A DNA stretch of 64,000 nucleotides, taken from assembly GCA_028817225.1 (NCBI GenBank), contig JAPPQC010000011.1:65098-129097 (forward strand), read 5' to 3'. Each line of letters begins with the position of its first letter. Position 1 is the first letter of the stretch. Of this stretch, positions 7,707-40,406 are shown in pieces. Both the position numbers and the translations under genes were made by a program. This DNA is from Gammaproteobacteria bacterium (lineage in GTDB: Bacteria; Pseudomonadota; Gammaproteobacteria; Poriferisulfidales; Oxydemutatoraceae). The notes under the pieces were generated by a model that did no database searches, was not told the DNA's origin, and saw only the letters and a list, made by a program, of their open reading frames with translations.

Positions 7707-10178
<2,472 letters not shown>

Positions 10179-14093: not shown

Positions 14094-14169
14094 CGCCGCC
14101 CGGCGCGGAATCGCGGTTGTTTTTCATCATGTCCGGTGCGAATGGTACAACACATGCTATGCTACGCGC

Positions 14170-15557: not shown

Positions 15558-15653
15558 CGCCGCCGCCCGTGAATTCAAGGCCCGGCAAATCCGGTTGCAG
15601 TCAATGCCCGGAAACCTCTTCCGGCCAAAAAGCTTGTTGCGCCGGAAAACAAA

Positions 15654-16485: not shown

Positions 16486-16578
16486 TGGCGGAGAGAGAGG
16501 GATTCGAACCCTCGATGAGGCTCATCACCCCATACTCCCTTAGCAGGGGAGCGCCTTCAACCACTCGGCCATCTCTCC
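16486..16578 (-). tRNA. tRNA-Ser (GCT), long variable arm
   Basis: Reverse complement GGAGAGATGGCCGAGTGGTTGAAGGCGCTCCCCTGCTAAGGGAGTATGGGGTGATGAGCCTCATCGAGGGTTCGAATCCCTCTCTCTCCGCCA. Confidence 0.85.
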
Positions 16579-20469: not shown

Positions 20470-21509
20470 GCGCAATGCCCGGCGGCGAGGTGTTCGCGCA
20501 GCAGGTGCTCCGCGATCTGCACGCTGTTGGTGGCCGCGCCCTTGCGTAAATTGTCGCTGACGACCCACAAGTCCAGCCCGCGCGGATGCGAGATGTCCTT
20601 GCGAAGACGCCCGACGAAGACATCGTCGCTGCCGTCGGCGTCGGTCGCCGCCGTCGGGTAGCCGCCGTCGCGGCGCTCGTCCATCAGCGTGACGCCGGCG
20701 GCGGACGCCAGCGCCGCGCGCGCCTCGCCGAGGTCCACATCGCGTTCGCACTCGATGTGCACCGCCTCCGAATGGCCGTGCACGACCGGCACGCGCACCG
20801 TCGTCGGGTTGACGCGGATGGCGTCGTCGCCGAATATCTTGCGGGTCTCCCAGACCATCTTCATTTCCTCTCTGGTGTAGCCGTTGTCGAGAAACACATC
20901 AATCTGCGGCAGCGCGTTGAACGCGATGCGCTTCGGGTACATGTCACCCGTCGCCGGCTTCCCGTCGAGCAGCGCGCGCGTCTGCGCCAGCATTTCCTCG
21001 ACCGCGCGCCGCCCGGCGCCGGACACCGCCTGGTAGGTCGCGACATTGATGCGCGTGATGCGAAAGCGGTCGTGCAGCGGTTTCAGCGCAACCACCATCT
21101 GAATCGTCGAGCAGTTCGGGTTGGCGACGATGCCGCGGTTGGCGTAGTGCGCGAGCGCTTCGGGGTTGACCTCGGGCACGACCAGCGGAATGTCGTCGTC
21201 GCGGCGAAAGTGCGAGGTGTTGTCCACGACGACGCAGCCGGCGGCGGCGGCGCGCGGCGCGTGGCGCTCCGACACCGCCGCGCCCGCCGAGAACAGCGCG
21301 ATGTCAACGCCGGCGAAATCAAACGCCTCAAGGTCGGCGACGGCGACTTTGCGGCCCCTGAAATCCAGCGCCGCGCCCGCCGAGCGGGCGCTCGCCAGCA
21401 GGTGCAACCGGGCGACCGGAAAATCGCGCTCCTCCAGCACCCGGCGCATCGTCGCGCCGACGGCGCCGGTCGCGCCGACAACCGCCACATTGACTTTTTT
21501 CACCGCCAT
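20466..21509 (-). CDS. asd: aspartate-semialdehyde dehydrogenase
   Basis: MAVKKVNVAVVGATGAVG...NPNCSTIQMVVALKPL..., a strong ASD match. Confidence 0.9.
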   Translation of the reverse strand: MAVKKVNVAVVGATGAVGATMRRVLEERDFPVARLHLLASARSAGAALDFRGRKVAVADLEAFDFAGVDIALFSAGAAVSERHAPRAAAAGCVVVDNTSHFRRDDDIPLVVPEVNPEALAHYANRGIVANPNCSTIQMVVALKPLHDRFRITRINVATYQAVSGAGRRAVEEMLAQTRALLDGKPATGDMYPKRIAFNALPQIDVFLDNGYTREEMKMVWETRKIFGDDAIRVNPTTVRVPVVHGHSEAVHIECERDVDLGEARAALASAAGVTLMDERRDGGYPTAATDADGSDDVFVGRLRKDISHPRGLDLWVVSDNLRKGAATNSVQIAEHLLREHLAAGHCA

Positions 21510-22592
<1,083 letters not shown>

Positions 22593-22614
22593 CGTTTGTC
22601 CGCCGCGGGGGCGG

Positions 22615-23640
22615 TCAGGCGGCGCGGCCCTTGCCGTTGCCGCCGCCGCTACCGCCGCTGCGGCCAAACGGCCACAGCGCCTTCCAGTTAATCTTGAAGT
22701 CGCCCCGCCACAGGGTCAGCGCCAGCCATTTGATGAACTCTGCGTTGCCGAGGCGCAGCAGCACTTCCCCGCACAAATACCCCAGCGGGAATTTGCCGCC
22801 GTTCAGAAAGTACCACTTGAAACCGCCCCAGATTATGGGGCCGGCGTTTCTCCCCCAAGAAACATCGCTGCGGTGAATCAAATGAACCAGTTCCGGCCGC
22901 TCGATGCAAACCTCGCTCATCAGGCGCTCCTCTATCAGAACAAGACGTCCCTCCCGGACCCGGCGCTCAAGACATTCATAATAGGCATCGCCCCAGCGGA
23001 TGACAGCCTCGCTTGAGCCTCCCCAAAACGCGGCGTTGACCGCCAACTCCGACGGCTTGTTGCCCGGCGACGGGTCGGGAGTCCAGGGTGGCGGGCCCAG
23101 ATAATTGACGACGGTAATCGCCACCTTGTGCCGGGGCAGCGCCCGGCACACCCGCAAATTCGGCCATTCAATGCGCTCCGACAAGCGAAACATCTGATTG
23201 TCGGAGCGGACGGTTGCCCTGAAAGCGCCGGCATCGCACCAGAATATCATCTCCGAGCCAAACGGATTCATCCCGGCGGCGCGCCGGGCAAAGTTGCACT
23301 TCTCATTCCAGATCATGGAGACATCGGGGTGCATGGCGCGACCCGGATGCGCATCCGGAGGCTGGGCAAGATACTGATCCTGAAAAACATCCCGGTATTT
23401 GTGGACAAGAAATTCCTCCGGACTGACGGCAAGATAAACTGCGGGCTTGTCCCCTCTCATCCGCCTGATTTCATCCAGCGACTGCTCTTCACAAAAAATG
23501 ACCAGCGGCCAGCGAATATGCGACACAAAAGTCCTCATCCACTCTTCGTACGGCCGGACGAAAGACTCGTTTCTTCTCCGCTGTCTGACCTTGAACCAGG
23601 CTGTCACCAGCGTTACCGGGTGCTGTTCGTTTGTCTTCAT
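22615..23640 (-). CDS. HtrL/YibB-like putative glycosyltransferase-family protein, long form, paralog 1 of 9
   Basis: [18 protein letters not shown]...[20 protein letters not shown]...[30 protein letters not shown]...[21 protein letters not shown]. Motif order resembles E. coli waa-cluster HtrL (TIVTAYFDIG...VAWVDFG) from memory. Confidence 0.6.
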
Positions 23641-23664
23641 ATCATTTGTCCGCCGCAAGGCCGG

Positions 23665-24750
23665 TCAGGCAGCGCGGCCCCTGCCATTTCCGTCGCCACC
23701 GCCGGCGCTCCCGCCACCGCCAAAGGGCCACAGCGCCTTCCAGTTAATCTTGAAGGTGCCCCGCCACAGGACCAGCGCCAGCCACTTGACGAATTCCGCG
23801 TTGCCGAGGCGCAGCAACACTTCCCGGCACAAATATCCCAGCGGGAATTTCCCGCCGTTCAGATAGTAGTACCTGAACCAGTCCCAGCACACATCGCCGG
23901 CGTTCCCGCCCCAGGAGACGGCGCTGCGTGGAATCAAATGCACCAGTTCCGGCCGGGTGATGCAAACCTCGCTCATGATGGGCTCCTCCATCAGAATGTG
24001 GCGCCCCTCCCGGACCCGGTGTTCAAGACATTCATAATAGGCGTCGCCCCAGCGGATGACAGCCTCGCTTGCGCCTCCCCAGAACCCGGCGCCGACCATC
24101 AGCACAGACGGCTTGCCGCCCGGCGCCGGACCATTCCCCGGCAACGGGTCGTGAGTCCGGGAGTGGTCGGGGCTCCAGGGCGGGTCGGGAGTCCAGGGTG
24201 GCGAACCCGGATAATTGACGATGGACACCGCCACCTTGTCCTGCGGCAGCGCCCGGCACACCCGCAAATTCGGCCATTCAATGCGCTGCGACAAACGGAA
24301 CAGCTGATTTTCAGTTCGCACGGTCGCCCTGAAAGCGCCGATATCGCACCAGAATATCATCTCCGACCCGAACGGGTTCATCCTGGCGGCGCGCCGGGCA
24401 AAGTTATACTTCTCATTCCAGATCATGGAAAGGTCCGGGTACAGGGCGCGAACCGTGTCCATCGCCGGAGGATGGGCAAGAATCTGGTTCTGAAAAACAC
24501 CCCGGTATTTGCAGACAAGGAATTCTTCCAGACTGGTGACAAGATAAACCGCAGGCCTGTCCCCTCTCATCCGCCTGATTTCATCCAGCGACTGTTCTTC
24601 ACAGAAAACAACCAGCGGCCAGCGAATATACGACAGAAAATTCCGCATCCACTCCTCGTACGGCCGGGCGCAGTCTTCGGCTCTTCTCCGCTGCCTGACT
24701 TTGAACCAGGCCGTCACCAGCGTTATCGGGTGCTGTTCGCTTGTCTCCAT
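23665..24750 (-). CDS. HtrL/YibB-like protein, long form, paralog 2
   Basis: [18 protein letters not shown]... 361 aa. Close paralog of 22615..23640. Confidence 0.6.
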   Translation of the reverse strand: METSEQHPITLVTAWFKVRQRRRAEDCARPYEEWMRNFLSYIRWPLVVFCEEQSLDEIRRMRGDRPAVYLVTSLEEFLVCKYRGVFQNQILAHPPAMDTVRALYPDLSMIWNEKYNFARRAARMNPFGSEMIFWCDIGAFRATVRTENQLFRLSQRIEWPNLRVCRALPQDKVAVSIVNYPGSPPWTPDPPWSPDHSRTHDPLPGNGPAPGGKPSVLMVGAGFWGGASEAVIRWGDAYYECLEHRVREGRHILMEEPIMSEVCITRPELVHLIPRSAVSWGGNAGDVCWDWFRYYYLNGGKFPLGYLCREVLLRLGNAEFVKWLALVLWRGTFKINWKALWPFGGGGSAGGGDGNGRGRAA

Positions 24751-24774
24751 GTCGTTTGTTCGCCGCAGGGCCGG

Positions 24775-25800
24775 TCAGGCGGCGCGGCCTCTGCCGTTGT
24801 TGCCGCCGCTCCCGCCACCGGCAAAGGGCCACAGCGCCTTCCAGTTGAATCTGAAGGCGCCCCGCCACAGAATCAGCACCAGCCATTTGATGAATCTCCA
24901 ATCGCCGATGCGCGGCAGCACCTCCCTGCACAAATACCCCAGCGGGAATTTCCCGCCGTTCAGATAGTACCACCTGTAATGGGTCCAGGACATTTCACCG
25001 GCGGCCCCTCCCCAGGAAACGGCGCTGCGGGGAATCAAATGCACCAGTTCCGGCCGGGCGATGCAAACCTCGCCCATGATGGGCTCTTCCACCAGAACGA
25101 AGCGCCCCTCCCGAACCCGGCGCTCAAGACATTCATAATAGGCGTCGCCCCAGCGGATGACAGCCTCGCTTGAGCCGCCCCAGAACCCGGCGGCGACCGC
25201 CAATGCCGGTTGGCCGCCATCCGGCGCAGGACCATTCCCCGGCGGCGGGCCGGAAAGCCCGGGTGGCGAATCCGGATAATTGACGACGGGAATCGCCACC
25301 CTGTCCTGCGGCAGCGCCCGGCACACCTGCAAATTCGGCCATTCAACGCGCTGCGACAAACGGAACACCTGTTCGTTGTAACTGGCGGTTGCCTTGAAAA
25401 TACCGACATCACACCAGAATATCATTTCCGACCCGAACGGGTTCATCCCGGCGGCGCGGCGGGCAAAGTTGCACTTCTCATTCCAGACCATGGCGAGATT
25501 GGGGTCCAGGGAACCGGACCTGTCCGGACGATCCGGGCACTGATCCTGAAAAACACGCCGGTATTTGTGGACAAGAAATTCCTCCGGACTGACGGCAAGA
25601 TAAACCGCGGGCCTGTCGCCTCTCATCCGCCTCATTTCATCCAGCGATTGCTCTTCACCGAAAACAACCAGCGGCCAGCGGATATGCGACAGCAAATTCC
25701 GCATCCATTCCTCGTACGGGCGAAAGGAGGATGCGCCTCTCCGCCTGATTTTGTACCAGGCCGTCACCAGCGTTATCGGATATTGTTCGCGTGTCTCCAT
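24775..25800 (-). CDS. HtrL/YibB-like protein, long form, paralog 3
   Basis: METREQYPITLVTAWYKI... Start lies 9 nt after the leuD stop. Confidence 0.6.
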   Translation of the reverse strand: METREQYPITLVTAWYKIRRRGASSFRPYEEWMRNLLSHIRWPLVVFGEEQSLDEMRRMRGDRPAVYLAVSPEEFLVHKYRRVFQDQCPDRPDRSGSLDPNLAMVWNEKCNFARRAAGMNPFGSEMIFWCDVGIFKATASYNEQVFRLSQRVEWPNLQVCRALPQDRVAIPVVNYPDSPPGLSGPPPGNGPAPDGGQPALAVAAGFWGGSSEAVIRWGDAYYECLERRVREGRFVLVEEPIMGEVCIARPELVHLIPRSAVSWGGAAGEMSWTHYRWYYLNGGKFPLGYLCREVLPRIGDWRFIKWLVLILWRGAFRFNWKALWPFAGGGSGGNNGRGRAA

Positions 25801-25809
25801 TGCAAACAC

Positions 25810-26454
25810 TCAGTCGTTGAAAAGCCAGGGCGCGGCGCGGCGGCGTCTTTGCTCGCAGGCGCGGATGTCGGCGGCGTGGCGCAGTGTCAGGCCGATTTCG
25901 TCCAGCCCTTCAAGCAGGCAGCGCTTGCGAAACGGGTCCACCTCAAACGGCCACGACGACTCGCCGTCGCCGACGCGCTGGCGCGGCAGGTCAACCGTCA
26001 GGCGGTAGCCTTCGCGCGCCGCGGTGCGCGCGAACAGTTCGTCCACTGCGGCGTCCGGCAGTTCCACCGGCAGCAGGCCGTTCTTGAACGAGTTGCCGAA
26101 AAACAACTCGGCGAAGCGCGGCGCGATGACGGCGAAAAAACCGGCGTCCATCAGCGCCCACACCGCGTGCTCGCGCGACGAGCCGCAGCCGAAGTTCTCG
26201 CGCGCCAGCAAAATGCCGGCGCCGCGGTAACGCGCCCGGTTCAGCACAAAATCGGGGTTGGGGCGGCGCTTTGAGTGGTCGTCGCCGATGTCGCCCGGGT
26301 CGAGATAGCGCCAGTCGTCGAACAGGTTCGGGCCGAAGCCGGTGCGCTTGACCGACTTCAGGTACTGCTTCGGAATGATCGCGTCGGTGTCCACATTGGC
26401 GCGGTCGAGCGGCGCGACGATGCCCTGTTCAACCTGAAACGCGCGCATCGCCAA
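25810..26454 (-). CDS. leuD: 3-isopropylmalate dehydratase small subunit
   Basis: [33 protein letters not shown]... TTG start adjacent to the leuC stop. Confidence 0.9.
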
Positions 26455-27864
26455 TCAGTCGCGCCAGTCGCGCACATCCACAAAGCGGCCCGCCACCGCC
26501 GCCGCCGCCGCCATCGCCGGGCTGACCAGGTGGGTGCGCCCGCCCTGCCCCTGGCGCCCCTCGAAGTTGCGGTTGGAGGTGGAGGCGCAGCGCTCGCCGG
26601 CGGCGAGGCGGTCTTCGTTCATGCCGAGGCACATCGAGCAGCCCGGTTCGCGCCATTCAAAACCGGCATCAATGAAAATGCGGTCAAGCCCCTCGCGCTC
26701 GGCCTGGCGCTTGACCGGGCCGGAACCCGGCACCACCAGCGCCTGGCGGATGCCGGCGGCGACGCGCCGGCCCCTGACGATGGCCGCGGCCTCGCGCAAA
26801 TCCTCGATGCGCGAGTTCGTGCACGAGCCGATGAACACCTTGTCGAGCATGATGTCGCCGATGGCCGTGCCCGGGCGCAAATCCATGTACGCCAGCGCCT
26901 TGCGCCAGCCCTCGGCCCTGACCGGGTCGCTCTCGCCGTCGGGGTCGGGCACGCGCCCGCCGACGGCGGCGACCATCTCCGGCGAAGTGCCCCAGGTCAC
27001 CTGCGGTTCGACTTCGGCGGCGTTGATCGAGACCTCGCGGTCGAACACCGCGCTGTCGTCGGAGCGGCAGTCGCGCCACGCCCGCTGCGCGCGCTCCCAC
27101 ATTTCACCGGCGGGCGCGTACGGGCGCCCGCACAGGTAGTCGCGCGTGACCTCGTCGCAGGCCACCAGCCCGGCGCGCGCGCCGGCCTCGATGGTCATGT
27201 TGCAGACGGTCATGCGGTTTTCCATCGAAAAGCCGCGAATGACATCGCCGGCGTATTCAATCGCATAGCCCGTGCCGCCGCCGGCGCCGATTTTTCCGAT
27301 GATCGCCAGCACGACATCCTTGGCGGTGACGCCGCGCGGCAGCGCGCCGTTGACGCTGATTCGCATGTTGCGAAGTTTTTTTGCCGGCAGGCACTGCGTC
27401 GCGAACACATGCTCCACTTCCGAGGTGCCGACGCCCATCGCCAGCGCCGCGAACGCGCCGTGCGTCGAGGTGTGCGAGTCGCCGCACACCAGCGTCATCC
27501 CCGGCAGCGTCGCGCCCTGCTCGGGGCCGATGACATGGACGATGCCCTGGCGCTCGTCGTCCAGCCCGTAATAGGTCAGCCCGTGCTCCCCGCAGTTGCG
27601 CGTCAGCGTGTCCAGTTGCACGCGCGCGACCGGGTCGGCGACGCCGCGCGCGCGGTTTTGCGTCGGCACATTGTGGTCGGCGACGGCGAGGATGGACGAG
27701 GCGCGCCACAACCCGCGCCCCGCCAGGCGCAGCCCCTCAAAGGCCTGCGGCGAGGTCACCTCGTGCACCAGATGGCGGTCTATGTACAGCAGCCCCATGC
27801 CGCCGTCCTCCTCGCGCACGAGGTGGTCGCGCCACAATTTGTCGTAAAGCGTCAGTCCCGGCAT
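26455..27864 (-). CDS. leuC: 3-isopropylmalate dehydratase large subunit
   Basis: [16 protein letters not shown]...Cys ligand region [14 protein letters not shown]...GSCTNSR. Confidence 0.9.
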
Positions 27865-27970
27865 GGCGTGATTTTAGCATTGACGGCGGCGCGTGGCAGG
27901 TGCGGCCGGCGATGACGGCGCGCGGCGGCGCATTGTCCGGTTGTCTTGACTCCGCCGCAGGCGACGCGCG

Positions 27971-28816
27971 TCATTGCGCCGGCGCGGAAAATATCCTGTT
28001 GCAGAAGTATTTCCACGGAAACCGTTGGCCGCTCAGAAAATACCACCGGTGGCCGCTGATTTCCTTTCCGGCCAGTCCGGCCGCGAAACTGACAAGCCGT
28101 ATCCACGGAACACGGCGGTGGGACAGCAGATAGGCGGCATCCGGCCGTCCTTTCCAGGCCGAGTGCATGACAATCTCATCCGACCGCTCGAAAGTGCCCT
28201 CTTCAGAGCACCGCTCAAGATATTGGTAATAGATGTCGCACCACCGACGCAGCGGTTCGGTCGCGCCGCCGAAAAAATTGCCCATGATGGCGGGGCAGGT
28301 CGAGGCATAAATCAGAATCAAGCCCACCTTGTCCCGCGACAGTGCCCGGCACACCCGCAGATTGGGCCATTCGACGCCTTCGGAAAGGCGCAGTCCGAAC
28401 CTCTCGCCCCTGAACAGGCCGACATCGCACCAGAAAAACATCTCCGAACCAAAAGGATTTTCCGACATCGCCTGCCGCAGGAAATGATGTTTCTCATGCC
28501 AAATCAAACTGCATGTGACAAAGGCTTCGGCGCGTTCCGCCGGAAACGGCAGGCGCTTCAGATTGTCCAGATACCGGTAGGCATAAAACGCCTCCGGGCG
28601 GGTGACATGGTACACCGCCGGCTTGCCTCCCCGCGCTTCCTTCAGCATGTCCAGGGACTGCTCGTCGCAGAAGATGACCAACGGCCAGCGGATAAACGGC
28701 AGCAGGTTTCTGATCCAGTCCGGATACGGGTTGCCCCACTCCGGATGGTCAATTTTCACTCCCACATTGAAATAGGCCGTCACCAGCGTCAGCGGGGATT
28801 GCCCGTGCGTTTCCAT
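27971..28816 (-). CDS. HtrL/YibB-like protein, short form, paralog 4
   Basis: METHGQSPLTLVTAYFNVG...[26 protein letters not shown]...WHEKHHFLRQAMSENPFGSEMFFWCDVGLF. An alternative ATG 24 nt upstream overlaps the previous paralog's stop (ATGA). Confidence 0.6.
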   Translation of the reverse strand: METHGQSPLTLVTAYFNVGVKIDHPEWGNPYPDWIRNLLPFIRWPLVIFCDEQSLDMLKEARGGKPAVYHVTRPEAFYAYRYLDNLKRLPFPAERAEAFVTCSLIWHEKHHFLRQAMSENPFGSEMFFWCDVGLFRGERFGLRLSEGVEWPNLRVCRALSRDKVGLILIYASTCPAIMGNFFGGATEPLRRWCDIYYQYLERCSEEGTFERSDEIVMHSAWKGRPDAAYLLSHRRVPWIRLVSFAAGLAGKEISGHRWYFLSGQRFPWKYFCNRIFSAPAQ

Positions 28817-28836
28817 TTCGTTGTCGGCAACGCGCG

Positions 28837-29700
28837 TCATTTTCCCGAACCGGAGAATATTCCCTTGCAGATGTGTTTCCACGGAAACCGCCTGCCGCTC
28901 AGGAGATACCACCGGTGGCCATACCCCTTTTTCCCGGCCAGCCTCGTCAGAAAAGCGAGGGGCCGCAGCCACGGAACAATGCCGGGGGGCAGCGGATATG
29001 CCATATCCGGGTGTTTGATGTAAAGAGATTCCATGATGCCCTCTTCCGAATAAATCATCGTCCCCTTCCGCGCGCGCCGTTCAAGATGACGGTAATACGC
29101 ATCGCACCATTCGCGCGCCGGCTTCACCGCGCCCCCGAAAAACTGGCCGGTGAAATTGGGGCGGTCAAAATTCCCGTACGGCAGCAGAACCGCCCTGTCC
29201 TGCGGCAACTCCCTGCATATCCGGAGATTGGGCCATTCGGCATCCCCGCAAAAGCGCAATTCCATCCTGACGGCGGAACGCCAGGGCGCGTCCCGCCTGA
29301 ATCTGAACATGCCGATATCGCACCAGAAAAGCATTTCCGAATTAAACGGGTTTTCCGACAGCGCGCGCCGCAGAAAATTGTGTTTCTCGTGCCAAACCAG
29401 GGAAACTTCGGCGGAAAGCCCTGCGTAGGGTTTCTTCAAATCCTTCAGCAGGTTCCAGTACTTGTAAACAACAAAATCTTCCGGGCGGGTGACATGCCAA
29501 ACCGCCGGCTTGTCGCCCCTCGCCTCCTTCAGCATGTCCACGGACTGCTCGTCGCAGAAAATCACCAGCGGCCACTTGATATACGGCAGGAAGTTTCTGC
29601 TCCAGTCCGGATACGGGTTTCCGGTGTATTTCACCTGTTTGCGGCCCAGATTGAAACAGGCCGTCACCAGCGTGATCGGATGCTGTCCGGTTGTTTCCAT
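28837..29700 (-). CDS. HtrL/YibB-like protein, short form, paralog 5
   Basis: METTGQHPITLVTACFNLG... Same family as the neighbours. Confidence 0.6.
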   Translation of the reverse strand: METTGQHPITLVTACFNLGRKQVKYTGNPYPDWSRNFLPYIKWPLVIFCDEQSVDMLKEARGDKPAVWHVTRPEDFVVYKYWNLLKDLKKPYAGLSAEVSLVWHEKHNFLRRALSENPFNSEMLFWCDIGMFRFRRDAPWRSAVRMELRFCGDAEWPNLRICRELPQDRAVLLPYGNFDRPNFTGQFFGGAVKPAREWCDAYYRHLERRARKGTMIYSEEGIMESLYIKHPDMAYPLPPGIVPWLRPLAFLTRLAGKKGYGHRWYLLSGRRFPWKHICKGIFSGSGK

Positions 29701-29720
29701 CCCGTTGCCGGCAGCGCGCG

Positions 29721-30587
29721 TCATCGCGCCGGCGCGGAAAAGAGCCTGCTGCAAAAGTATTTCAACGGAAACCGCCTGCCGTTCAGGAGATAGTATTTGT
29801 AACCCATCACTGCATTTCTTCGCCGAAGGCAAGCAATATACGGAACACTGTCAAGCGGCATCGTATATGCGAGTTCCGGCTTTCTCCTCCAGCAGGACAT
29901 CATGACGAACTCTTCTCTATAGACAAAATTCCCATTCTGCTTGCATTTTTCAAGACACCGGTAATAAGCGTCGCACCACCGGCGCGAAGGCTCAATCGCG
30001 CCCCCGAAAAACTGGGCATTGATACGACTAAGGTCCGCGTTTGCCAAAATCACTTTATCTTGCGGCAACGCACGGCACACCCCAAGATTGGGCCATTCGA
30101 TGTCTTCAAACAGGCGAAATGTCATCCGCGGCCCCTCAATCATGGGCGCATCAGGATTGTACCTGAACTGGCCGATATCGCACCAGAAAAGCATCTCCGA
30201 ACCGAAAGGGTTCTCCAACAGCGCCTGCCGCAGAAAATGATGTTTCTCATGCCAGATTAAACTGCGTGCAACAAAAACCTCGCGTGTAATGGGGGCTTCG
30301 CCATAGAGCGTGCAACATGGCAGGCGCTTCAGGTCATCCAGATACCTGTATGTATAAAACTCCTCCGGACGGGTGACGCGCCAAACCGCCGGCTTGTCCC
30401 CTCTCGCCTCTTTGAGCATGTCCAGCGATTGCTCGTCGCAGAACACCACCAGCGGCCACCGGACATGCGGCAGGAAGTTCCTGATCCAGCCCGGATACGG
30501 ATTTTCCAACTCCGGATGTTCGGGTTTCCCTCCCAATTCAAAATAAGCCGTCACCAGCGTTATCGGGTGCCGCTCCGCTGTCTCCAT
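29721..30587 (-). CDS. HtrL/YibB-like protein, short form, paralog 6
   Basis: METAERHPITLVTAYFELGGKPEHPELENPYPGWIRNFLP... Confidence 0.6.
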   Translation of the reverse strand: METAERHPITLVTAYFELGGKPEHPELENPYPGWIRNFLPHVRWPLVVFCDEQSLDMLKEARGDKPAVWRVTRPEEFYTYRYLDDLKRLPCCTLYGEAPITREVFVARSLIWHEKHHFLRQALLENPFGSEMLFWCDIGQFRYNPDAPMIEGPRMTFRLFEDIEWPNLGVCRALPQDKVILANADLSRINAQFFGGAIEPSRRWCDAYYRCLEKCKQNGNFVYREEFVMMSCWRRKPELAYTMPLDSVPYIACLRRRNAVMGYKYYLLNGRRFPLKYFCSRLFSAPAR

Positions 30588-30607
30588 CCCGCTGTCGGCG
30601 GCGCGCA

Positions 30608-31456
30608 TCATCGCACCGGCCCGGAAATGAGCCTTCTGCAAAAGTACCGCCACGGCAACCGCCTGCCGTTCAGGAGATACCACTCGAAATCCAGTGCAGG
30701 CCTTTGCTTTTTAAGGAAAACAGTATATGGAGCGGAATAAGACGAAATCACATGCGCGAGTTCAGGTTGCCTCCTCCAGCAGGACATCATGACGTACTCT
30801 TCTCTCTCGGTAAGACTTCCATTCTGCTTTCGTCGTTCAAGACGTTGGTAATAAGCGTCGCACCACCGGCGCGAAGGCTCAATCGCGCCTCCGAAAAAGC
30901 AGCCAGCCATGGCATCGTAAGGCGCCCCGGCTAAAACCACTTTATCTTTCGGCAATGCCCGACACACTTCGAGATTGGGCCATTCGATATCTTCAAACAG
31001 GCGAAATGCCCTCCGCCGAGACGACCACCAGGGGGCGTCCGGCTCGTATCTGAGCTTAGCGATATCGTACCAGAAAAACATCTCCGAACCAAAAGGGTTC
31101 TCCGACAGCGTCTGCCGCAGAAAATGATGCTTTTCATGCCAGACCAAACTGCGAACAACGAAGGCTTCGGCACGTTCCGCAGGAAATGACAGGCGCTTCA
31201 GATCTTCCAGATACTTGTACACATAAAAATCTTCCGGGCGAGTGACATGCCAAACCGCCGGCTTGTCCCCTCTCGCCTCTTTGAGCATGTCCAGCGATTG
31301 CTCGTCGCAGAACACCACCAGCGGCCACCGGACATGCGGCAGGAAGTTCCTGATCCAGCCCGGATACGGATTTTCCAACTCCGGATGTTCGGGTTTCCCT
31401 CCCAATTCAAAATAAGCCGTCACCAGCGTTATCGGGTGCCGCTCCGCTGTCTCCAT
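30608..31456 (-). CDS. HtrL/YibB-like protein, short form, paralog 7
   Basis: METAERHPITLVTAYFELGG... Unusual FWYDIAKL where the others have FWCDIG. Confidence 0.55.
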   Translation of the reverse strand: METAERHPITLVTAYFELGGKPEHPELENPYPGWIRNFLPHVRWPLVVFCDEQSLDMLKEARGDKPAVWHVTRPEDFYVYKYLEDLKRLSFPAERAEAFVVRSLVWHEKHHFLRQTLSENPFGSEMFFWYDIAKLRYEPDAPWWSSRRRAFRLFEDIEWPNLEVCRALPKDKVVLAGAPYDAMAGCFFGGAIEPSRRWCDAYYQRLERRKQNGSLTEREEYVMMSCWRRQPELAHVISSYSAPYTVFLKKQRPALDFEWYLLNGRRLPWRYFCRRLISGPVR

Positions 31457-31476
31457 CCCGCTGTCGGCGGCGCGCA

Positions 31477-32355
31477 TCATCGCACCGGTCCGGAAAAGAT
31501 TCTTCTGCAAAGGTAGCGCCACGGAAACCGCCTGCCGTTCAGGAGATACCATTTGTAAGCCATGGCACGGCTTCCCCCTATAAGCAAACCAATATACGGA
31601 ACAGAATGAGCCGATATCACATGCACGAGTTGCCGTCGTCTCCTCCAACAGGATAGCATGACGTGCTCTTCCGAAGAGGTAAAAACCCCGTTCTGCTTTC
31701 GTTTTCCAAGGCGCCGGTAATAAGCGTCGCACCATCGGCGCGAAGGCTCAACCGCACCCCCAAACCAGGCGCCGGCAGGACGCGCTTTATCGTCGCGACA
31801 CCTCCCTGCCAAAACTACTTTATCTTGTGGCAACATACGACACACCTCAAGATTTGGCCATTCGATATCCTCAAGCAGGCGAAATCTCATCCGCCGGGCC
31901 GTCCACCAGGACGCATCCGGCTCCAATCTGAAAACACCGATATCGCACCAGAACAGCATCTCCGAACCAAAAGGATTTTCTGACAGCGCCTGCCGCAGAA
32001 AATGATGTTTTTCATGCCAAACCAGACTGCGTGTAATGCAGACTTCGGCATGTTCTTCGGGAAATGACAGGCGCTTCAAGTCGTCCAGATACCTGTAGGT
32101 ATAAAAGTCCTCCAGGCGGGTGACGCGCCAAACCGCCGGCTTGTCCCCTCTCGCCTCTTTGAGCATGCCCAGCGATTGCTCGTCGCAGAATACCACCAGC
32201 GGCCACCGGACAAGCGGCAAAAAGTTCCTGATCCAGCCCGGATACGGATTTTCCAACTCCGGATGTTCGGGTTTCCCTCCCAATTCAAAATAAGCCGTCA
32301 CCAGCGTCAGCGGGTATTGGCCGTGCGCCCCCTTCCCGCTGCTTGCGGCATGCAT
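31477..32355 (-). CDS. HtrL/YibB-like protein, short form, paralog 8
   Basis: MHAASSGKGAHGQYPLTLVTAYFELGG... ATG overlaps the stop of paralog 9 (TGATG). Confidence 0.55.
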   Translation of the reverse strand: MHAASSGKGAHGQYPLTLVTAYFELGGKPEHPELENPYPGWIRNFLPLVRWPLVVFCDEQSLGMLKEARGDKPAVWRVTRLEDFYTYRYLDDLKRLSFPEEHAEVCITRSLVWHEKHHFLRQALSENPFGSEMLFWCDIGVFRLEPDASWWTARRMRFRLLEDIEWPNLEVCRMLPQDKVVLAGRCRDDKARPAGAWFGGAVEPSRRWCDAYYRRLGKRKQNGVFTSSEEHVMLSCWRRRRQLVHVISAHSVPYIGLLIGGSRAMAYKWYLLNGRRFPWRYLCRRIFSGPVR

Positions 32356-33248
32356 CACCGCCCCGGCCCGGGAAGGAGGCATTTGAGACAATATTTCCAC
32401 GGAAACCGTTCACCGGACAGAAGATACCAACCAGCACTGCTGCCATCGTAAGGCTTTCCGGCAGGCCTCCCTGTCAACAGTCTGTACAAAAACCTGCCGC
32501 GACGTCTCCATGCAATACCGGAAGACAGCAGGTACGCAATCTCCGGTTGTCTCATGTAGAGCAGACACATGGCAACCTGATCAATATAGGGAACCTTTCC
32601 ATCTTGCCAGGCTTTGTCAAGAAATTGGCGGTAAGCGTCACACCATCTGCGTGTCGGCTTCAACGCACCCCCGAAAAAACCGCCGCCGATTTGAACAGAC
32701 CCGATGCGGGAACCAGCGTCAGGAACGAGAAACACCCTGTCTTGCGGCAACATCCGGCATATCCGGAGATTGGGCCATTCGACATCTTCAGACAATTGAA
32801 TATGCCTTCCGACTTGCTTCAGGCGCGACTTCGGCCTGAATCTGAAAAGACCGATATCACACCAGAAAAACATCTCCGAGTTGAAAGGGTTCTCCGACAG
32901 CGCCTGCAGCAGAAAATGGTGTTTCTCGTGCCAGACCAGGGCAAGTTCGGGATGAGGTATCCGGTAAGGTCTCCGCCGGGCTTTCAGATGATTCATATAC
33001 TTGTGTACAGAAAATTCTTCCAGTGAGGTGACATGCCAAACCGCCGGCTTGTCGCCTCTCGCCTCTTTGAGCATGCCCAGGGACTGCTCGTCGCAGAAGA
33101 CCACCAGCGGCCACCGGACATGCGGCAAAAAATTCCTGATCCAGCCTGGATAGGGGTTGCCCAAATGCTGGTACCGGGTTTTCCCTCCCAGATCAAAATA
33201 AGCCGTCACCAGCGTTATCGGGTACTGCCGAGGGGGGCATCTCATCAC
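32355..33248 (-). CDS. HtrL/YibB-like protein, short form, paralog 9 (first in array)
   Basis: MMRCPPRQYPITLVTAYFDLGGK... Starts 12–15 nt after the stop of the small upstream ORF. Confidence 0.6.
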   Translation of the reverse strand: MMRCPPRQYPITLVTAYFDLGGKTRYQHLGNPYPGWIRNFLPHVRWPLVVFCDEQSLGMLKEARGDKPAVWHVTSLEEFSVHKYMNHLKARRRPYRIPHPELALVWHEKHHFLLQALSENPFNSEMFFWCDIGLFRFRPKSRLKQVGRHIQLSEDVEWPNLRICRMLPQDRVFLVPDAGSRIGSVQIGGGFFGGALKPTRRWCDAYRQFLDKAWQDGKVPYIDQVAMCLLYMRQPEIAYLLSSGIAWRRRGRFLYRLLTGRPAGKPYDGSSAGWYLLSGERFPWKYCLKCLLPGPGR

Positions 33249-33260: not shown

Positions 33261-33479
33261 TCAATGCGCGTCAGGATTGTAAAAAGCCGCCGTAGTATGC
33301 TTCTTCTTCGCCCAGAAGGTCATATCCGGATGCTCGGCGTGCAGTTCCTCGACGCGCTTGCGGGCCTCGCCCCAGGTCATCTCGTCGTCGTACTCGCCGG
33401 CCTCGAACTTGTACTTGTATCTCCAGCCGATGACAAAACCCGGCTCGTCGTCCTTGTGGTGAAAAGTGTCTTCCATCAT
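33261..33479 (-). CDS. hypothetical small charged protein (72 aa) leading the HtrL-like array
   Basis: GGAGAGAGG SD 2 nt before the ATG. MMEDTFHHKDDEPGFVIGWRYKYKFEAGEYDDEMTWGEARKRVEELHAEHPDMTFWAKKKH. GC3-rich codons. Confidence 0.5.
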   Translation of the reverse strand: MMEDTFHHKDDEPGFVIGWRYKYKFEAGEYDDEMTWGEARKRVEELHAEHPDMTFWAKKKHTTAAFYNPDAH

Positions 33480-33493
33480 TGCCTCTCTCCGTG

Positions 33494-34594
33494 TCAGCGC
33501 GCCGCCAGCGCGCCCGGCTCAAACGCCATCAGCACCCGTTTCAGCAGTTGCTGCGCCAGCGCGTACGGCACCGCGGCGCCGTTGTCGTTCGGGTGCACCG
33601 TCACCAGCGTCTGCCCGCCCTTCGCCAGCAGGTGCAGTTGCAGCAGTCGCCCGCGCGCGGCGGCGCCGTCTATGCCGGCGCCGCCGGCGTCGTTGTAGCG
33701 CACCAGGTAAATGCCGCGGCTGCGGTCGTCGGCGCGCATCTCAATGCCGGAACGCCCGAGCGCCGCGCCGATGTGCCGCCACGCCTTGCTGTAACGCTGG
33801 CCGACCCGCAGCACCGCAACCCCGGCCATGTTGCGGATGTCCAGCGCAATCCGCGCGTCGTCAAGCGACGCCATGCGCGGGCTGGCCGCCTCGCGCCCGG
33901 CCGCAAGGTAATCGCGGAAACGCAGCAGCATGCGCCGCTCAAATTCCATGTCCGGCGGCAGGATGCGCCATTCGCCGCCGCTCAGGGCGGCCTCGCGCGA
34001 TGAAATAAACACATTGGTAACCGCGTCCGGCTCGCGCTCAAGACGCACGCGAACGCGCACGCGCGAACGCGCCAGCCCGCGCGCGCCGGCAACCTCAACG
34101 CGGCGCTCGCGCCATTCGGTCTCGGCGTAGCCGTGCGCCGGATTGCTCGCGGCCACCTTGAAGCCGCTGCGCCGTAAAAACGCCGGCACCTGCGGCCACA
34201 GCGTCGCCGGGCTGACATCCACCGCAAGCCACGCGACGCCGCCGTCGCGCCGCAGTTGCAGGTCAAGCCGCTCCGGCAGCACGCGGCTGTTCAGCGCCGC
34301 GTCGGCGGCGGCGCTGACGCGGCCCCTGCCGCCCGGCACCTGAAGGCTGTTGCCGGTGTCCGGCGCGTCGAGTTCGGGCGGCACTTCCAGCGGGTCGTTG
34401 TCGCCGCTCATGAAGACTTCGGAGCCGAAAGTCGGCAGTTCCAGTTGGTCAAGCAGCGATGTGCCGTCGTTCGTGGTTGAACAACCCGCAAGCCACAGGC
34501 AAACAACGGCGGCAACCGGCCACCGCGCGGCGCTCATTGCACCCCGCCGCAGAAATCCGCCGACGGCAACACCCAACCTCCGCACAGCACTCAT
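33494..34594 (-). CDS. bamC: outer membrane protein assembly factor BamC (lipoprotein)
   Basis: Lipobox VVCLWLAGCSTT. Position directly after dapA, as for E. coli nlpB/bamC. Start ATG overlaps the dapA stop (ATGA); exact start uncertain. Confidence 0.65.
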   Translation of the reverse strand: MSAVRRLGVAVGGFLRRGAMSAARWPVAAVVCLWLAGCSTTNDGTSLLDQLELPTFGSEVFMSGDNDPLEVPPELDAPDTGNSLQVPGGRGRVSAAADAALNSRVLPERLDLQLRRDGGVAWLAVDVSPATLWPQVPAFLRRSGFKVAASNPAHGYAETEWRERRVEVAGARGLARSRVRVRVRLEREPDAVTNVFISSREAALSGGEWRILPPDMEFERRMLLRFRDYLAAGREAASPRMASLDDARIALDIRNMAGVAVLRVGQRYSKAWRHIGAALGRSGIEMRADDRSRGIYLVRYNDAGGAGIDGAAARGRLLQLHLLAKGGQTLVTVHPNDNGAAVPYALAQQLLKRVLMAFEPGALAAR

Positions 34595-35469
34595 TGCACC
34601 ACCCCGGCGCGGCGCATGGCCGCGTGCACTTCGTCGTGAAAGTCCGCCGCCAGCGGCGTCAGCGGCAGCCGGATGCCCGGCGGTATCCGGTTCATCCGGT
34701 GCAGCGCCCACTTGACCGGAATCGGGTTGGACTCAAGAAACAGCGCCTGGTGCAGGCCGTGCAGCCGCCCGTCCATCTCCTCGGCGCGCGCGCGGTCGCC
34801 GGCCAGCGCCGCCTTGCACATCTCGTGCATCTGCGCCGGCGCGACATTGGCGGTGACTGAAATCACGCCGCGCGCGCCGCGCAGGATGGTCTCGGCGGCG
34901 GCGTGATCCTCGCCGCTGTACACCGCAAAATCCTTTCCGCAAAGTTGCATGATGTCGTTGCTGCGTTCAATTGAACCGGTGGCCTCCTTGATGCCGACAA
35001 TGCCGGGCACCCGGCTGAGGCGCTGGACGGTGGCCGGCAGCATGTCGCAGGCCGTCCGCCCCGGCACATTATAAAGAATTTGCGGAATCTCCGCCGATTC
35101 GGCAATCAACTTGTGGTGCCGGTACAGCCCCTCCTGCGTCGGCTTGTTGTAATACGGCGTCACCAGCAGGCAGGCGTCGGCGCCGCTTTCCTGCGCGCCG
35201 CGCGTCAGTTCCAGCGCCTCGCGCGTTGAATTGGCGCCGGTGCCGGCGATGACCGGAATGCGCCCGCGCACCTGGCCGACCGCAAAGCGGATGACCTCGC
35301 GGTGCTCGTCGAAATCCAGCGTCGCCGACTCGCCGGTGGTGCCCGCCGCGACCAGCGCGTCGGTGCCCTCGCCAATGTGAAACTCAATCAAGTCGGCGAA
35401 CGCGCGGTAGTCAATCGCGCCGTCCTCCCGCATCGGCGTAACCACCGCCACCATGCTGCCCTGAAACAT
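34591..35469 (-). CDS. dapA: 4-hydroxy-tetrahydrodipicolinate synthase
   Basis: MFQGSMVAVVTPMREDGAIDY...GTTGESATL...catalytic-Lys region IVGIKEATG. Confidence 0.9.
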   Translation of the reverse strand: MFQGSMVAVVTPMREDGAIDYRAFADLIEFHIGEGTDALVAAGTTGESATLDFDEHREVIRFAVGQVRGRIPVIAGTGANSTREALELTRGAQESGADACLLVTPYYNKPTQEGLYRHHKLIAESAEIPQILYNVPGRTACDMLPATVQRLSRVPGIVGIKEATGSIERSNDIMQLCGKDFAVYSGEDHAAAETILRGARGVISVTANVAPAQMHEMCKAALAGDRARAEEMDGRLHGLHQALFLESNPIPVKWALHRMNRIPPGIRLPLTPLAADFHDEVHAAMRRAGVVQ

Positions 35470-35493
35470 CATCCGCAACCGCACCGCGCGGCG

Positions 35494-40329: not shown

Positions 40330-40406
40330 TGGTGGCTATGGCGGGACTTGAACCTGCGACCCCGGCATTATGAATGCCGTGCTCTAACCAACTGAGCTAC
40401 ATAGCC
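40330..40406 (-). tRNA. tRNA-Met (CAT), elongator-like
   Basis: Reverse complement GGCTATGTAGCTCAGTTGGTTAGAGCACGGCATTCATAATGCCGGGGTCGCAGGTTCAAGTCCCGCCATAGCCACCA; close to E. coli metT. Confidence 0.8.

Follow-up and report, generated by a model that had tools for sequence, protein, structure and literature searches.

Nine intact ORFs of one family, all on the minus strand, lie within a leucine-biosynthesis operon of a sponge-symbiont genome, which raises the question what their products do and whether the short stretches in which they differ could set enzyme specificity. The window analysed here is the whole stretch of 64,000 nucleotides, and all positions refer to it. A sequence-only reading had described two hypervariable segments on otherwise near-invariant blocks; we found four internal ones, namely V1 after (H/Y)(K/R)Y, V2 after FWCDxGxFR, V3 after QDKV, and V4 between VPW and WY.L.G, with a lesser variable patch after TLVTAYF. 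The features are listed below, with paralog coordinates given after correction of start codons.

22615..23640, minus: p1, type A, 341 aa; ATG at 23640 (MKTNEQHP); V1 23320-23394, V2 23191-23217, V3 23029-23121, V4 22816-22854
22618-22743, minus: C-terminal extension and Gly tail of p1
23665..24750, minus: p2, type A, 361 aa; V1 24430-24504, V2 24301-24327, V3 24085-24231, V4 23872-23910
23668-23799, minus: C-terminal extension of p2
24775..25800, minus: p3, type A, 341 aa; V1 25495-25560, V2 25366-25392, V3 25186-25296, V4 24973-25011
24778-24900, minus: C-terminal extension of p3
25810-26454, minus: leuD, identified from its translation; with leuC it splits the two paralog blocks
26455-27864, minus: leuC, identified from its translation
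27933..27974, minus: 14-codon stub MTRVACGGVKTTGQ, 5' relic of a tenth type-B paralog
27971..28840, minus: p4, type B, 289 aa; V1 28511-28570, V2 28394-28408 (5 aa only), V3 28277-28324, V4 28046-28102
28837..29724, minus: p5, type B, 295 aa; V1 29404-29457, V2 29260-29301, V3 29143-29190, V4 28912-28968
29721..30611, minus: p6, type B, 296 aa; V1 30264-30341 (long form, +6 aa), V2 30120-30161, V3 30012-30050, V4 29796-29837
30608..31480, minus: p7, type B, 290 aa; V1 31151-31210, V2 31007-31048, V3 30899-30937, V4 30683-30724
31477..32358, minus: p8, type B, 293 aa; GTG start, or ATG at 32355; V1 32029-32088, V2 31885-31926, V3 31768-31815, V4 31552-31593
32355..33248, minus: p9, type B, 297 aa, first gene of the array; GTG start, or ATG at 33245; V1 32943-32996, V2 32802-32840, V3 32679-32732, V4 32430-32507 (26 aa, the longest V4)
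33261..33479, minus: conserved 72-aa ORF separating bamC from the array; belongs to the conserved locus

The p1-3 block occupies the interval from leuD to leuB, with 10 nt between the leuD stop and the p3 ATG and 22 nt between the end of p1 and the leuB start, and p4-9 lie upstream of leuC. A matching arrangement, with Pfam Aconitase and Aconitase_C/LeuD matches, was found in L001, L002, and L016, where a 72-aa gene is also called at the equivalent position. The p4-p9 genes are linked by ATGA or GTGA stop-start overlaps. The array would share a transcript with leuC, leuD, and leuB, and the ATGA overlaps probably couple translation from p4 to p9. The stub overlaps the p4 stop in the same way (ATGA) and continues into the leuC upstream region; the N-termini to be compared with it are MTRVADNEMETHGQ (p4) and MTRAAGNGMETTGQ (p5). 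An "upstream peptide" of the long ORFs (SPERQAVSVE...) was rejected, as it is the 3' end of the preceding gene in another frame. Terminator-like sites showed no excess, and slipped-strand phase variation is unlikely because there are no homopolymer or SSR tracts at the array. GC3 of the paralogs is 0.60-0.75 versus 0.85-0.90 (0.87-0.90 in leuC and leuD), a difference that suggests foreign origin or weak selection.

The two subfamilies proposed earlier were recovered, with mutual identities of 70-78% among p1-3 (type A) and 52-73% among p4-9 (type B), and 38-45% between the groups. The extra C-terminus of about 45 aa ascribed to p1-3 measures 41-44 aa, is confined to these copies, and reads (A/W)(E/R)F(I/V)KWL(A/V)L.LWRG.F(K/R)(I/F)NWKALWPF and then a Gly-rich tail that ends in GR(G)RAA. 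Type-B proteins do stop about 10 residues past RFPW(K/R)Y(F/L)C, but this is not an alternative ending, as type A also has the motif, in the form KFPLGYLC. A homologous amphipathic C-terminal helix is present in outgroup clades; by sequence comparison the type-A helix is ancestral and was lost in type B, so that type B is the truncated form.

That divergence is concentrated in particular segments was borne out strongly. Averaged per column, pairwise identity among p4-9 is 0.67 for the core and 0.19 for the loops (Mann-Whitney p = 8e-27), and among p1-3 it is 0.82 versus 0.40 (p = 4e-19). Identical boundaries also split core from loops in two independent arrays of other genomes (0.75 versus 0.45 in L001, 0.72 versus 0.23 in L014). 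The segment after (H/Y)KY corresponds to V1 and is hypervariable overall, but p4, p7, and p8 share LKRL(P/S)FP(A/E)E(R/H)AE in it. The 13-30 aa given for the second segment did not hold, since V3, with lengths that depend on the boundaries used here, spans 13-18 aa in the type-B proteins; the type-A V3 is 31-49 aa long and is a Pro-rich, low-complexity insertion (49 aa in p2, with PPW(T/S)PD twice). Several loops are kept within orthologous lineages while differing between paralogs: those of p4 are retained in the orthologs P0033 and P0030, and the same holds for p9 with P0002 and for p8 with P0042 and P0029. In the core, D136, W134, E-W-P, and G-G are invariant in 94 of 94 sequences, and p7 reads FWYDIA in place of the near-invariant FWCD(I/V)G. 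As a separate observation, this family-wide conservation already suggests that single-copy orthologs would share the rate contrast between core and loops.

Pfam and NCBIfam searches gave weak HtrL_YibB matches: p5 and p9 pass the Pfam threshold (p9 highest of the nine, at 27.4 bits), 7 of 9 copies fall below the gathering score, and the YibB equivalog scores are 16-30 bits against a cut-off of 264.9. A clade profile, however, retrieved 3121 proteins among 1.84e9 at E<=0.001, among them genuine PF09612 domains that matched profile positions of about 5-245 at E 1e-46 to 1e-26. The distant matches tested were true PF09612 domains, and 3 of 10 tested distant proteins were fused to GT4, GT25, GT11, GT8, GT31, or FkbM methyltransferase domains. 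These profile matches place the paralogs in a divergent clade of the HtrL/YibB superfamily, which is listed as of "unknown function" and for which those sources report no demonstrated activity of any member (PMC10327509, PMC4172580).

The AlphaFold models (p5, m3e1543e114a3: pLDDT 83.6, pTM 0.86; p2, mff6d5d55b838: pTM 0.77) show a predicted scaffold of the GT-A nucleotide-sugar transferase type. All top Foldseek matches were GT6 enzymes (GTA/GTB, alpha3GalT, and BoGT6a; E 7e-7 to 1e-4). The similarity is remote, with TM scores of 0.35-0.57, mostly <0.5, an rmsd of about 5 Å for p5, and no match to Pfam Glyco_transf_6 at E<=1. The array motif FFGG...(E/D)E resembles FFGGSVQEV...WHDES of GTA; a PDB profile search gave this match at E 0.7 and hhalign at E 5.6e-4 with 30% probability, the GTA sequence having been checked against 1lz0_A. 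In the clade the DxD position reads D-x-G, and a conserved C-terminal His was not found; the way metal and donor are bound may therefore depart from that of classical GT-A enzymes.

On these models the variable segments map to internal loops and not to termini. Some parts look disordered, with pLDDT <50 in the Gly tail and in the long V3 of type A (in p2, residues 21-28, 97-100, 143-148, 182-212, and 341-361 fall below 50), and V2, possibly disordered too, and V4 are also of low pLDDT. The hypervariable regions HV1-HV3 of GT-A enzymes build acceptor sites (PMC7185993). Judged by the order of secondary-structure elements in the models, V1 sits in HV1, between beta3 and alphaC; V2 and V3 sit in HV2, bounded by the DxD strand and the G-loop strand; and V4 with the C-terminus sits in HV3, after the last core strand. 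The last residues of V3, which immediately precede the invariant FFGG, align with residues 266 and 268 of GTA/GTB, which determine donor specificity in GT6 (PMC4692239). The aligned residues differ between most copies, being N/A, G/G, A/G, M/N, T/Q, N/Q, A/C, A/A, and G/G from p1 to p9. From topology and a remote alignment, the loops would lie around the active site.

The best explanation, which we consider reasonably probable, is that the clade consists of GT-A-fold glycosyltransferases with specificity-shaping loops. The nine genes would encode soluble, probably membrane-peripheral enzymes of a divergent, sponge-symbiont-restricted HtrL/YibB clade, whose core for nucleotide-sugar binding and catalysis would be built from the conserved blocks. 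The proposed core blocks are W(H/N)EK on helix alphaC; FWCD(I/V)G, which closes beta4 at the site of the GT-A DxD; EWPN; (F/W)(F/W)GG as the G-loop equivalent; and (E/D)E as the equivalent of GT6 Asp302-Glu303. V1-V4 would fill the three canonical hypervariable regions and shape the acceptor pocket, with the end of V3 shaping the donor pocket, so that each paralog would add another sugar or use another acceptor. A cell-surface glycan is the likely target, given that LOS/LPS loci are where HtrL genes lie elsewhere. The array evolves by tandem duplication, deletion, and gene conversion, which keep the core uniform, reshuffle loop cassettes, and alter copy number among close relatives.

Gene conversion has homogenised the conserved blocks and shuffled the loops, and concerted evolution accounts for part of the seemingly invariant scaffold. 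Over their first 231 nt p6 and p7 are 100% identical, versus 74.6% in the remainder (max chi-square 72); block C2 has 96-99% DNA identity among the L014 copies; the nearest neighbour of L014_5 shifts by segment, from L014_3 (N, V1, C2) to L014_1 (V2, C4, V4) and L014_7 (V3); and dS is 0.15-0.18 across gene junctions versus 0.65-0.7 mid-gene, with repeat families in agreement. These same data would fit the possible, if doubtful, view that homogenisation of alignable blocks explains most of the pattern, with indel-bearing loops acting as conversion barriers that merely seem hypervariable and no selection for specificity. Against it, the core blocks are kept in single-copy orphans of other phyla and across the 94 sequences, where conversion cannot act, and core omega (0.16-0.40, close to the 0.12-0.27 of housekeeping genes) stays well under 1, a sign of purifying selection beyond homogenisation. 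In addition, loops themselves move between paralogs as cassettes (V3 is 95% identical in L014_5 and L014_7), and hence they are not simple conversion barriers.

Diversifying selection on the loops, which the sequence-only reading had made a test of its proposal, was not shown, since loop dN/dS was 0.2-1.26 and every bootstrap interval included 1 or fell below it. Relaxed constraint fits these values equally well. We regard it as unlikely that the segments are simply unconstrained surface loops of functionally redundant paralogs that persist for dosage or through neutral birth-and-death. Such drift would account for loop omega values of 0.6-1.0 in most comparisons with confidence intervals including 1, the whole-gene omega of 0.3-0.5, the low pLDDT of V2, V4, and type-A V3, and the indels and low-complexity Pro/Gly sequence in the loops, and the variation in copy number among close relatives suggests that single copies are dispensable. 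It fits poorly with loops that are conserved in several orthogroups yet fully different between paralogs (p5 and its ortholog L014_9 share 90% loop identity, with a loop omega of 0.21, CI 0.06-0.53), with their match to GT-A regions known to bind acceptors, and with nine out of nine ORFs being intact with invariant motifs. For the glycosyltransferase reading, the GT-A fold, the HV1-HV3 positions, and the 266/268 alignment all point to specificity loops on a shared scaffold; because loop dN/dS is never significantly above 1 and gene conversion has acted, this reading is plausible but unproven.

The clade was found almost exclusively in MAGs of sponge symbionts from unrelated lineages (Ca. Porisulfidus, Ca. 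Oxydemutator, Nitrospirales, and Arenicellales; PMC12988363, PMC11685487). Its arrays share one operon position, with 3 to 12 copies per genome in compositions of 6+3, 8+1, 11+1, 1+2, and at least 10 copies. Neither the array nor the orphan copies in Nitrospirales and Oxydemutator have a glycan-biosynthesis context. It is improbable that the proteins are host-directed effectors or modifiers of non-glycan substrates, glycosylating for example sponge proteins or small molecules through loops that recognise host targets: this distribution, the orphan neighbourhoods, the atypical GC3, and a proposed Midichloria effector with an HtrL/YibB-like domain of eukaryote similarity (bioRxiv 10.1101/2022.05.16.490919) would fit, but the proteins carry neither a signal peptide nor a recognisable secretion signal, the window contains no secretion-system genes, HtrL relatives elsewhere occur in LOS/LPS loci and fused to polysaccharide glycosyltransferases, and co-transcription with housekeeping leu genes is atypical for effectors.

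Of the known systems, the A. baumannii OC locus types likewise have adjacent glycosyltransferase paralogs and a gene content that varies by strain, whereas the array is a single family inside an amino-acid biosynthesis operon, without identified sugar-precursor, flippase, or polymerase genes at the locus. HtrL/YibB proteins (PF09612, TIGR02192; LOS/LPS loci of E. coli, Salmonella, Campylobacter, and Acinetobacter) share with the array a core of about 250 aa and common motifs near W.EK and FW.D. The array differs in its extra C-terminal module WY.L.G.RFPW.YFC, with or without the amphipathic helix, in its tandem genes in a leu operon instead of an LPS locus, and in that its clade was found almost exclusively in sponge-symbiont MAGs. 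The closest solved fold is GT6 (human GTA/GTB, bovine alpha3GalT, and Bacteroides ovatus BoGT6a), with which the array has FFGG-(about 28 aa)-(D/E)E in common as a local motif, its near-invariant Glu aligning with catalytic Glu303, and the array enzymes would by analogy use retaining chemistry. Identity to GT6 is about 10-13%, and the array has D-x-G where mammalian GT6 has DxD. Bacterial GT6 has NxN. The GT6 active site is flanked by flexible internal loops and a flexible C-terminus (PMC4692239), which the low-confidence V loops resemble, and the residues before FFGG that set donor choice in GT6 are variable in the array. The general GT-A design of a conserved core with HV1-HV3 acceptor regions (Taujale et al. 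2020, PMC7185993) is matched by the array loops in order, and in both cases these regions are kept within a lineage and vary from one lineage to another. In the array, however, the variation lies among paralogs of one genome at 40-80% identity and not between CAZy families, and the loop cassettes are exchanged by recombination.

The window holds nine intact paralogs on the minus strand, as judged by ORF listing and alignment: p1 to p3 (type A) lie between leuD and leuB, and p4 to p9 (type B) lie upstream of leuC. Read in the direction of transcription, the order is dapA, bamC/nlpB, a 72-aa ORF, p9 to p4, leuC, leuD, p3, p2, p1, leuB, asd, and a FimV-like gene. The long-ORF calls give N-termini that are too long. 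Genes p4 to p9 are linked by ATGA/GTGA stop-start overlaps, and an apparent conserved upstream peptide is therefore the C-terminus of the preceding gene in another frame; the string 'SPERQAVSVE...' upstream of p4-p8, considered as a leader or RNA element, was rejected because it is the 3' end of the preceding gene in the other frame. The start of p3 lies 10 nt past the leuD stop and the end of p1 22 nt ahead of the leuB start, distances too short to accommodate separate transcription signals. No excess of terminator-like sites was seen (21 vs 19.1 expected from shuffled sequence), and no Rfam element was found inside the array, the Rfam matches of the window being RNase P RNA and tRNAs only.

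Array-associated features and Rfam matches in the window
34591-35484, minus strand: dapA, flanking the array
33494-34711, minus strand: bamC/nlpB, Pfam Lipoprotein_18
33261-33479, minus strand: 72-aa ORF between bamC and the array, MMEDTFHHKDDEPGFVIGWRYKYKFEAGEYDDEMTWGEARKRVEELHAEHPDMTFWAKKKHTTAAFYNPDAH
27933-27974, minus strand: stub of a tenth type-B paralog, 14 codons, MTRVACGGVKTTGQ, directly past the p4 stop and into the leuC upstream region
14169-14521, plus strand: RNase P RNA, class A (Rfam, 324.7 bits)
7058-7217, 13652-13742, 16486-16578, 40330-40406, 45717-45791: six tRNA genes (Rfam)

The stub is a relic of a deletion within the array. Inside the stub region and just ahead of the leuC start, a sigma-70-like site is seen (27871-27899, minus strand; CTGCCA-17-TAAAAT with an upstream TG), and from the consensus match alone leuC may have kept its own promoter there. 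The 72-aa ORF is highly conserved and occupies the identical position in three related loci of other genomes (L001, L002, and L016), where its homologs have no precomputed Pfam hit; in the window, an overlapping out-of-frame ORF (33271-33522) is likewise without a Pfam match. The flanks of the array (dapA, bamC, leuC, leuD, leuB, and asd) are not those of an LOS/LPS core or O-antigen locus. GC3 of the paralogs is 0.60-0.75, whereas that of leuB, leuC, leuD, asd, and dapA is 0.85-0.90.

Elsewhere in the window, long plus-strand antisense ORFs (e.g. 23128-25173, and many across 19-25 kb) lack the GC3-over-GC2 coding signature and were set aside as high-GC artefacts. The FimV-like gene (18967-20751, minus strand) contains a long low-complexity region rich in Pro, Ser, and Ala, and a 226-aa ORF at 43924-44604 (plus strand) has a coding-like composition, with a GC3 of 0.69 that is below its neighbours, and no Pfam hit. 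A second tandem glycosyltransferase-like pair, which we take to be GT32-like, is found at 14742-15578 and 15654-16469 (minus strand); it matches Pfam Caps_synth and a DXD-containing Gly_transf_sug, and at 0.74-0.75 its GC3 lies atypically low. In the L002 locus of Porisulfidus, csrA is followed by a homolog.

The sequence-only reading of the paralogs had proposed two structural subfamilies, and this is borne out by identities of 70-78% among p1-3 and 52-73% among p4-9 vs 38-45% between the types, together with an extension of 41-44 residues (a Trp-rich hydrophobic stretch and a Gly-rich tail) that only type A has. Type B ends about 10 residues beyond RFPW.Y.C. The same reading had placed the divergence in two short loops; the clustering holds, but the variable segments number four (V1-V4), and the first of these, described as hypervariable between copies, is nearly identical in p4, p7, and p8. 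Overall, that observation was mostly correct, if incomplete.

Variable segments and their lengths
V1, after (H/Y)(K/R)Y: type B 18-26 aa; type A 22-25 aa
V2, after FWCDxGxFR: type B 5-14 aa; type A 9 aa
V3, after QDKV: type B 13-18 aa; type A 31-49 aa
V4, before WY.L.G: type B 14-26 aa; type A 13 aa

Mean pairwise identity per column was 0.67 in the conserved core vs 0.19 in the loops for p4-9 (Mann-Whitney p 8e-27), and 0.82 vs 0.40 for p1-3 (p 4e-19). Boundaries drawn in the window also split core from loops in the independent arrays L001 (0.75 vs 0.45) and L014 (0.72 vs 0.23), so the pattern is not a post-hoc artefact. In type A, V3 is a Pro-rich, low-complexity insertion, of which a PPW(T/S)PD unit is duplicated in p2.

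The C-terminal region of p1-3 had been taken as extra. It is indeed absent from type B; however, the Porisulfidus homolog P0059 has an extension like that of p2 (54% identity to p2), and the outgroup clades (Oxydemutator, Nitrospirales) have a homologous C-terminal helix that is amphipathic and basic. The region is therefore ancestral, with only the Gly-rich tail specific to type A; type A is an old lineage, and type B is truncated and derived. No segment reached transmembrane hydrophobicity (maximum 19-residue Kyte-Doolittle mean <=1.6), and the aromatic and basic C-termini would fit an interfacial membrane association. In L014 gene 3 (1801-2781) and L016 gene 2 (9072-9977), the C-terminal motif is duplicated internally (..RFPWKYFRLSFRWHFL..GRFPWKYF).

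To our knowledge, the HtrL/YibB family of LPS loci has carried the label 'function unknown' for decades. Two paralogs scored above the Pfam PF09612 gathering threshold of 24.1 bits (p5 25.4, p9 27.4), and the other seven fell below it (15.3-21.2). With scores of 16.5-30.5 bits against YibB equivalog cut-offs of 264.9 and 342 bits (TIGR02192 / NF008462), the paralogs do not, by these profiles, qualify as orthologs of E. coli YibB. When 5.8 billion proteins were searched with a word index, p9 had only 77 relatives and p2 only 34; none of them carried a functional name, the few source names being 'hypothetical protein'. When a profile of the clade was run against 1.84 billion cluster representatives, 3121 proteins matched at E <= 0.001, and only about 20 representatives combined more than 200 bits with membership of the close clade. 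Matches of the profile to PF09612 proteins had E-values of 1e-46 to 1e-26 over profile positions ~5-245, and the ten distant matches that were scanned contained genuine PF09612 domains (33-146 bits). Three of these ten are fused to GT4, GT25, GT11, GT8, GT31 or FkbM methyltransferase domains, a context typical of polysaccharide assembly. PMC4172580 and PMC10327509 still give the function of HtrL as unknown and tie it to LOS loci.

AlphaFold2 models of p2 (pLDDT 75.5, pTM 0.77) and p5 (pLDDT 83.6, pTM 0.86) were built from the 94-sequence family alignment. Both show the same order of elements, beta1-alpha-beta2-alpha-beta3-alpha-[V1]-long helix-beta4-Asp-[V2], followed by short helix-beta-[V3]-beta(FFGG)-long helix-helix with (E/D)E-beta-[V4]-C-terminal helices. 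The Rossmann-like N-terminal beta/alpha/beta domain of these models and their likeness to solved enzymes in Foldseek are those of a GT-A fold. Every top PDB match was a GT6 enzyme (human GTA/GTB, the ABO transferases; bovine alpha3GalT; B. ovatus BoGT6a) at probability 1.00, with E-values of 1e-4 for p2 and ~1e-6 for p5 (lowest 7e-7), TM 0.35-0.57, and for p5 an rmsd of ~5 A over ~270 columns; GT31 enzymes, also at probability 1.00, ranked next. Pfam PF03414 (Glyco_transf_6) had no match at E<=1 in any of the nine paralogs. A profile search of PDB sequences weakly (E ~0.7) placed FFGG...(E/D)E on FFGGSVQEV...WHDES of GTA/GTB. With a GTA catalytic-domain sequence 100% identical to PDB 1lz0_A, hhalign aligned p5 174-233 to GTA 250-308 (E 5.6e-4, but probability only 30%), an alignment that at full length stayed confined to the G-loop-to-xED region. 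At this 30% probability, a near-invariant Glu (p5 E228, p2 E256) stands opposite the catalytic Glu303, and the preceding E/D opposite Asp302.

The motifs follow the order of the GT-A core: GG is invariant in (F/W)(F/W)GG, as expected of a G-loop, and the xED-type motif (E/D)E has E or D at its first position in 93/94 sequences and E at its second in 87/94. An invariant Asp (p2 D136) comes directly after strand 131-135 in a D-(I/V)-G motif; none of the 94 sequences has the second acidic residue of a DxD, and among the conserved columns no His is invariant or near-invariant, as the metal-coordinating C-terminal His of GT-A enzymes would be, which leaves metal dependence uncertain. From models and motifs, we conclude on a predicted GT-A fold whose nearest solved relative is GT6, to which homology is plausible. 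At residues 136-141 (31051-31068), p7 reads FWYDIA, although the family has FWCD(I/V)G, with Cys in 87/94 and Gly in 88/94; its close homologue L014_7 (84% identical) is likewise off consensus with FWSDIA, and this lineage may have an altered activity.

The paralogs are mosaics. The first 231 nt of p6 (30381-30611) and p7 (31250-31480) are 100% identical, whereas the remainder is 74.6% identical (max chi-square 72); this tract is a recent gene-conversion or unequal-crossover tract spanning a gene junction. Likewise, dS is 0.15-0.18 at gene junctions vs 0.65-0.7 in mid-gene. Within the L014 array, which copy is nearest depends on the segment: L014_5 is closest to L014_3 in N, V1, and C2, to L014_1 in V2, C4, and V4, and to L014_7 in V3 (95%). 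It follows that the near-invariance of the scaffold is in part concerted evolution and that loops move between copies as cassettes. A 65-nt repeat (22592-22656, 23642-23706, 24752-24816) comprises the Gly-tail codons and a 22-25-nt spacer; because the sequence preceding leuB recurs ahead of p1 and p2, the type-A duplication unit is a gene plus its downstream spacer. Phase variation by slipped-strand mispairing is unlikely and was dismissed, since the array contains no simple-sequence tracts.

As recombinant mosaics violate the single-tree assumption of tree-based site-wise analysis, dN/dS was estimated pairwise (Nei-Gojobori) with bootstrap. Core omega was 0.16-0.40, near that of housekeeping genes of the lineage (0.12-0.27). 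Loop omega was 0.59-1.26 in most pairs, with every bootstrap interval including 1, and 0.21 (CI 0.06-0.53) for p5 vs its ortholog L014_9. In nonsynonymous divergence the loops exceeded the core 2.5-6.6-fold, except in that same pair (0.8 times), and dS between old paralogs was saturated, which makes an MK-like contrast of paralogs and orthologs uninformative. An NJ tree shows orthologs from other genomes for each paralog of the window, which makes the duplications old. Loops are visibly conserved inside an orthogroup (p4 with homologs P0033 and P0030, p8 with P0042 and P0029, p9 with P0002, p3 with P0083, P0073, and P0076), and between orthogroups they are unrelated. This combination is the mark of functional specialisation and later constraint, short of a demonstration of positive selection.

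The common locus in relatives runs proS, AI-2E transporter, (ahpC), dapA, bamC, 72-aa ORF, array, then leuC, leuD, one or more copies, leuB, asd, and fimV.

Array copies per locus (before leuC; between leuD and leuB)
Window: 6; 3
L001: 11; 1
L002 (Ca. Porisulfidus, OY843752.1): 8; 1
L016: 1; 2
L014: at least 10 in all, the contig being entirely array and the leuD-leuB interval lying outside it

Genomes thus carry three to twelve copies. L016 has 3 copies vs 9 in the window, yet its housekeeping proteins are 93-97% identical; it also carries a type-B copy in the leuD-leuB interval, which shows that type does not strictly follow position. With one genome scanned per species (185,579 species), only 11 loci in 7 MAGs emerged, from Ca. 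Porisulfidus, Ca. Oxydemutator, Nitrospirales (two MAGs), Arenicellales, and two 'Gammaproteobacteria bacterium' MAGs, PNGst_S and STY4. Nitrospirales and Oxydemutator have single copies, near which no glycan genes were found. The ROBB21 label on the metagenome set of other contigs presumably denotes a sponge survey. Unrelated phyla and the atypical GC3 suggest horizontal spread among co-resident symbionts, some of these MAGs being linked to sponges by name only. Both Porisulfidus and Oxydemutator have been described as symbionts of sponges (PMC12988363, PMC11685487).

Three GT-A hypervariable regions have been defined with family-specific acceptor-binding motifs: HV1 between beta3 and alphaC, HV2 between beta6 and beta7, and HV3 as the tail after beta8 (Taujale et al., PMC7185993). 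In a mapping that is topological and alignment-based, V1 would correspond to HV1 by secondary-structure order, V2 and V3 to the HV2 region (DxD strand to G-loop strand), and V4 with the C-terminus to HV3. In GTA/GTB, residues 266 and 268 decide between UDP-GalNAc and UDP-Gal (PMC4692239). The last residues of V3 stand opposite these positions in the hhalign alignment (probability 30%), and read, from p1 to p9, N/A, G/G, A/G, M/N, T/Q, N/Q, A/C, A/A, and G/G, only p2 and p9 sharing a pair. V2 and V4 have low pLDDT in the AlphaFold2 models; since in GT6 an internal loop and the C-terminus are disordered until substrate binding (PMC4692239), this is not evidence against a functional role. The idea that the loops set specificity is plausible and gains a structural rationale. 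Diversifying selection, the pattern that the sequence-only reading had itself asked of dN/dS, was not seen: across all pairs loop omega was 0.21-1.26, and every 95% bootstrap interval included 1 or lay below it.

Altogether, the array probably encodes HtrL-superfamily GT-A glycosyltransferases whose paralogs differ in canonical specificity regions; duplication, deletion, and gene conversion would both maintain and reshuffle it, and its genes would be expressed together with the leu operon. A more far-reaching view, which we consider rather unlikely, sees here a cassette system for glycan diversification that only sponge symbionts would have, driven from a housekeeping operon. Unequal crossing-over would shift the number of enzymes, gene conversion would recombine acceptor/donor loop cassettes (V1-V4) on a homogenised catalytic core, and horizontal transfer would have carried the family to unrelated symbionts of a common sponge host; the resulting strain-specific surface or host-mimicking glycans could help against sponge phagocytosis or phage.

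The GT-A/GT6-like model (putative catalytic Glu, G-loop, putative donor-pocket position) offers testable predictions for the whole HtrL/YibB family. The sponge-symbiont clade is a natural experiment: the 3-12 paralogs of a genome differ mainly in the three canonical GT-A specificity regions and exchange loop cassettes by recombination, which would make them a ready-made panel for studying how acceptor choice is encoded in GT-A loops. Should its products be surface glycans, the array becomes a candidate determinant of the way in which sponges tell symbionts apart from food bacteria. Its placement in a leuC-leuD-leuB operon, kept across genera, is unusual.
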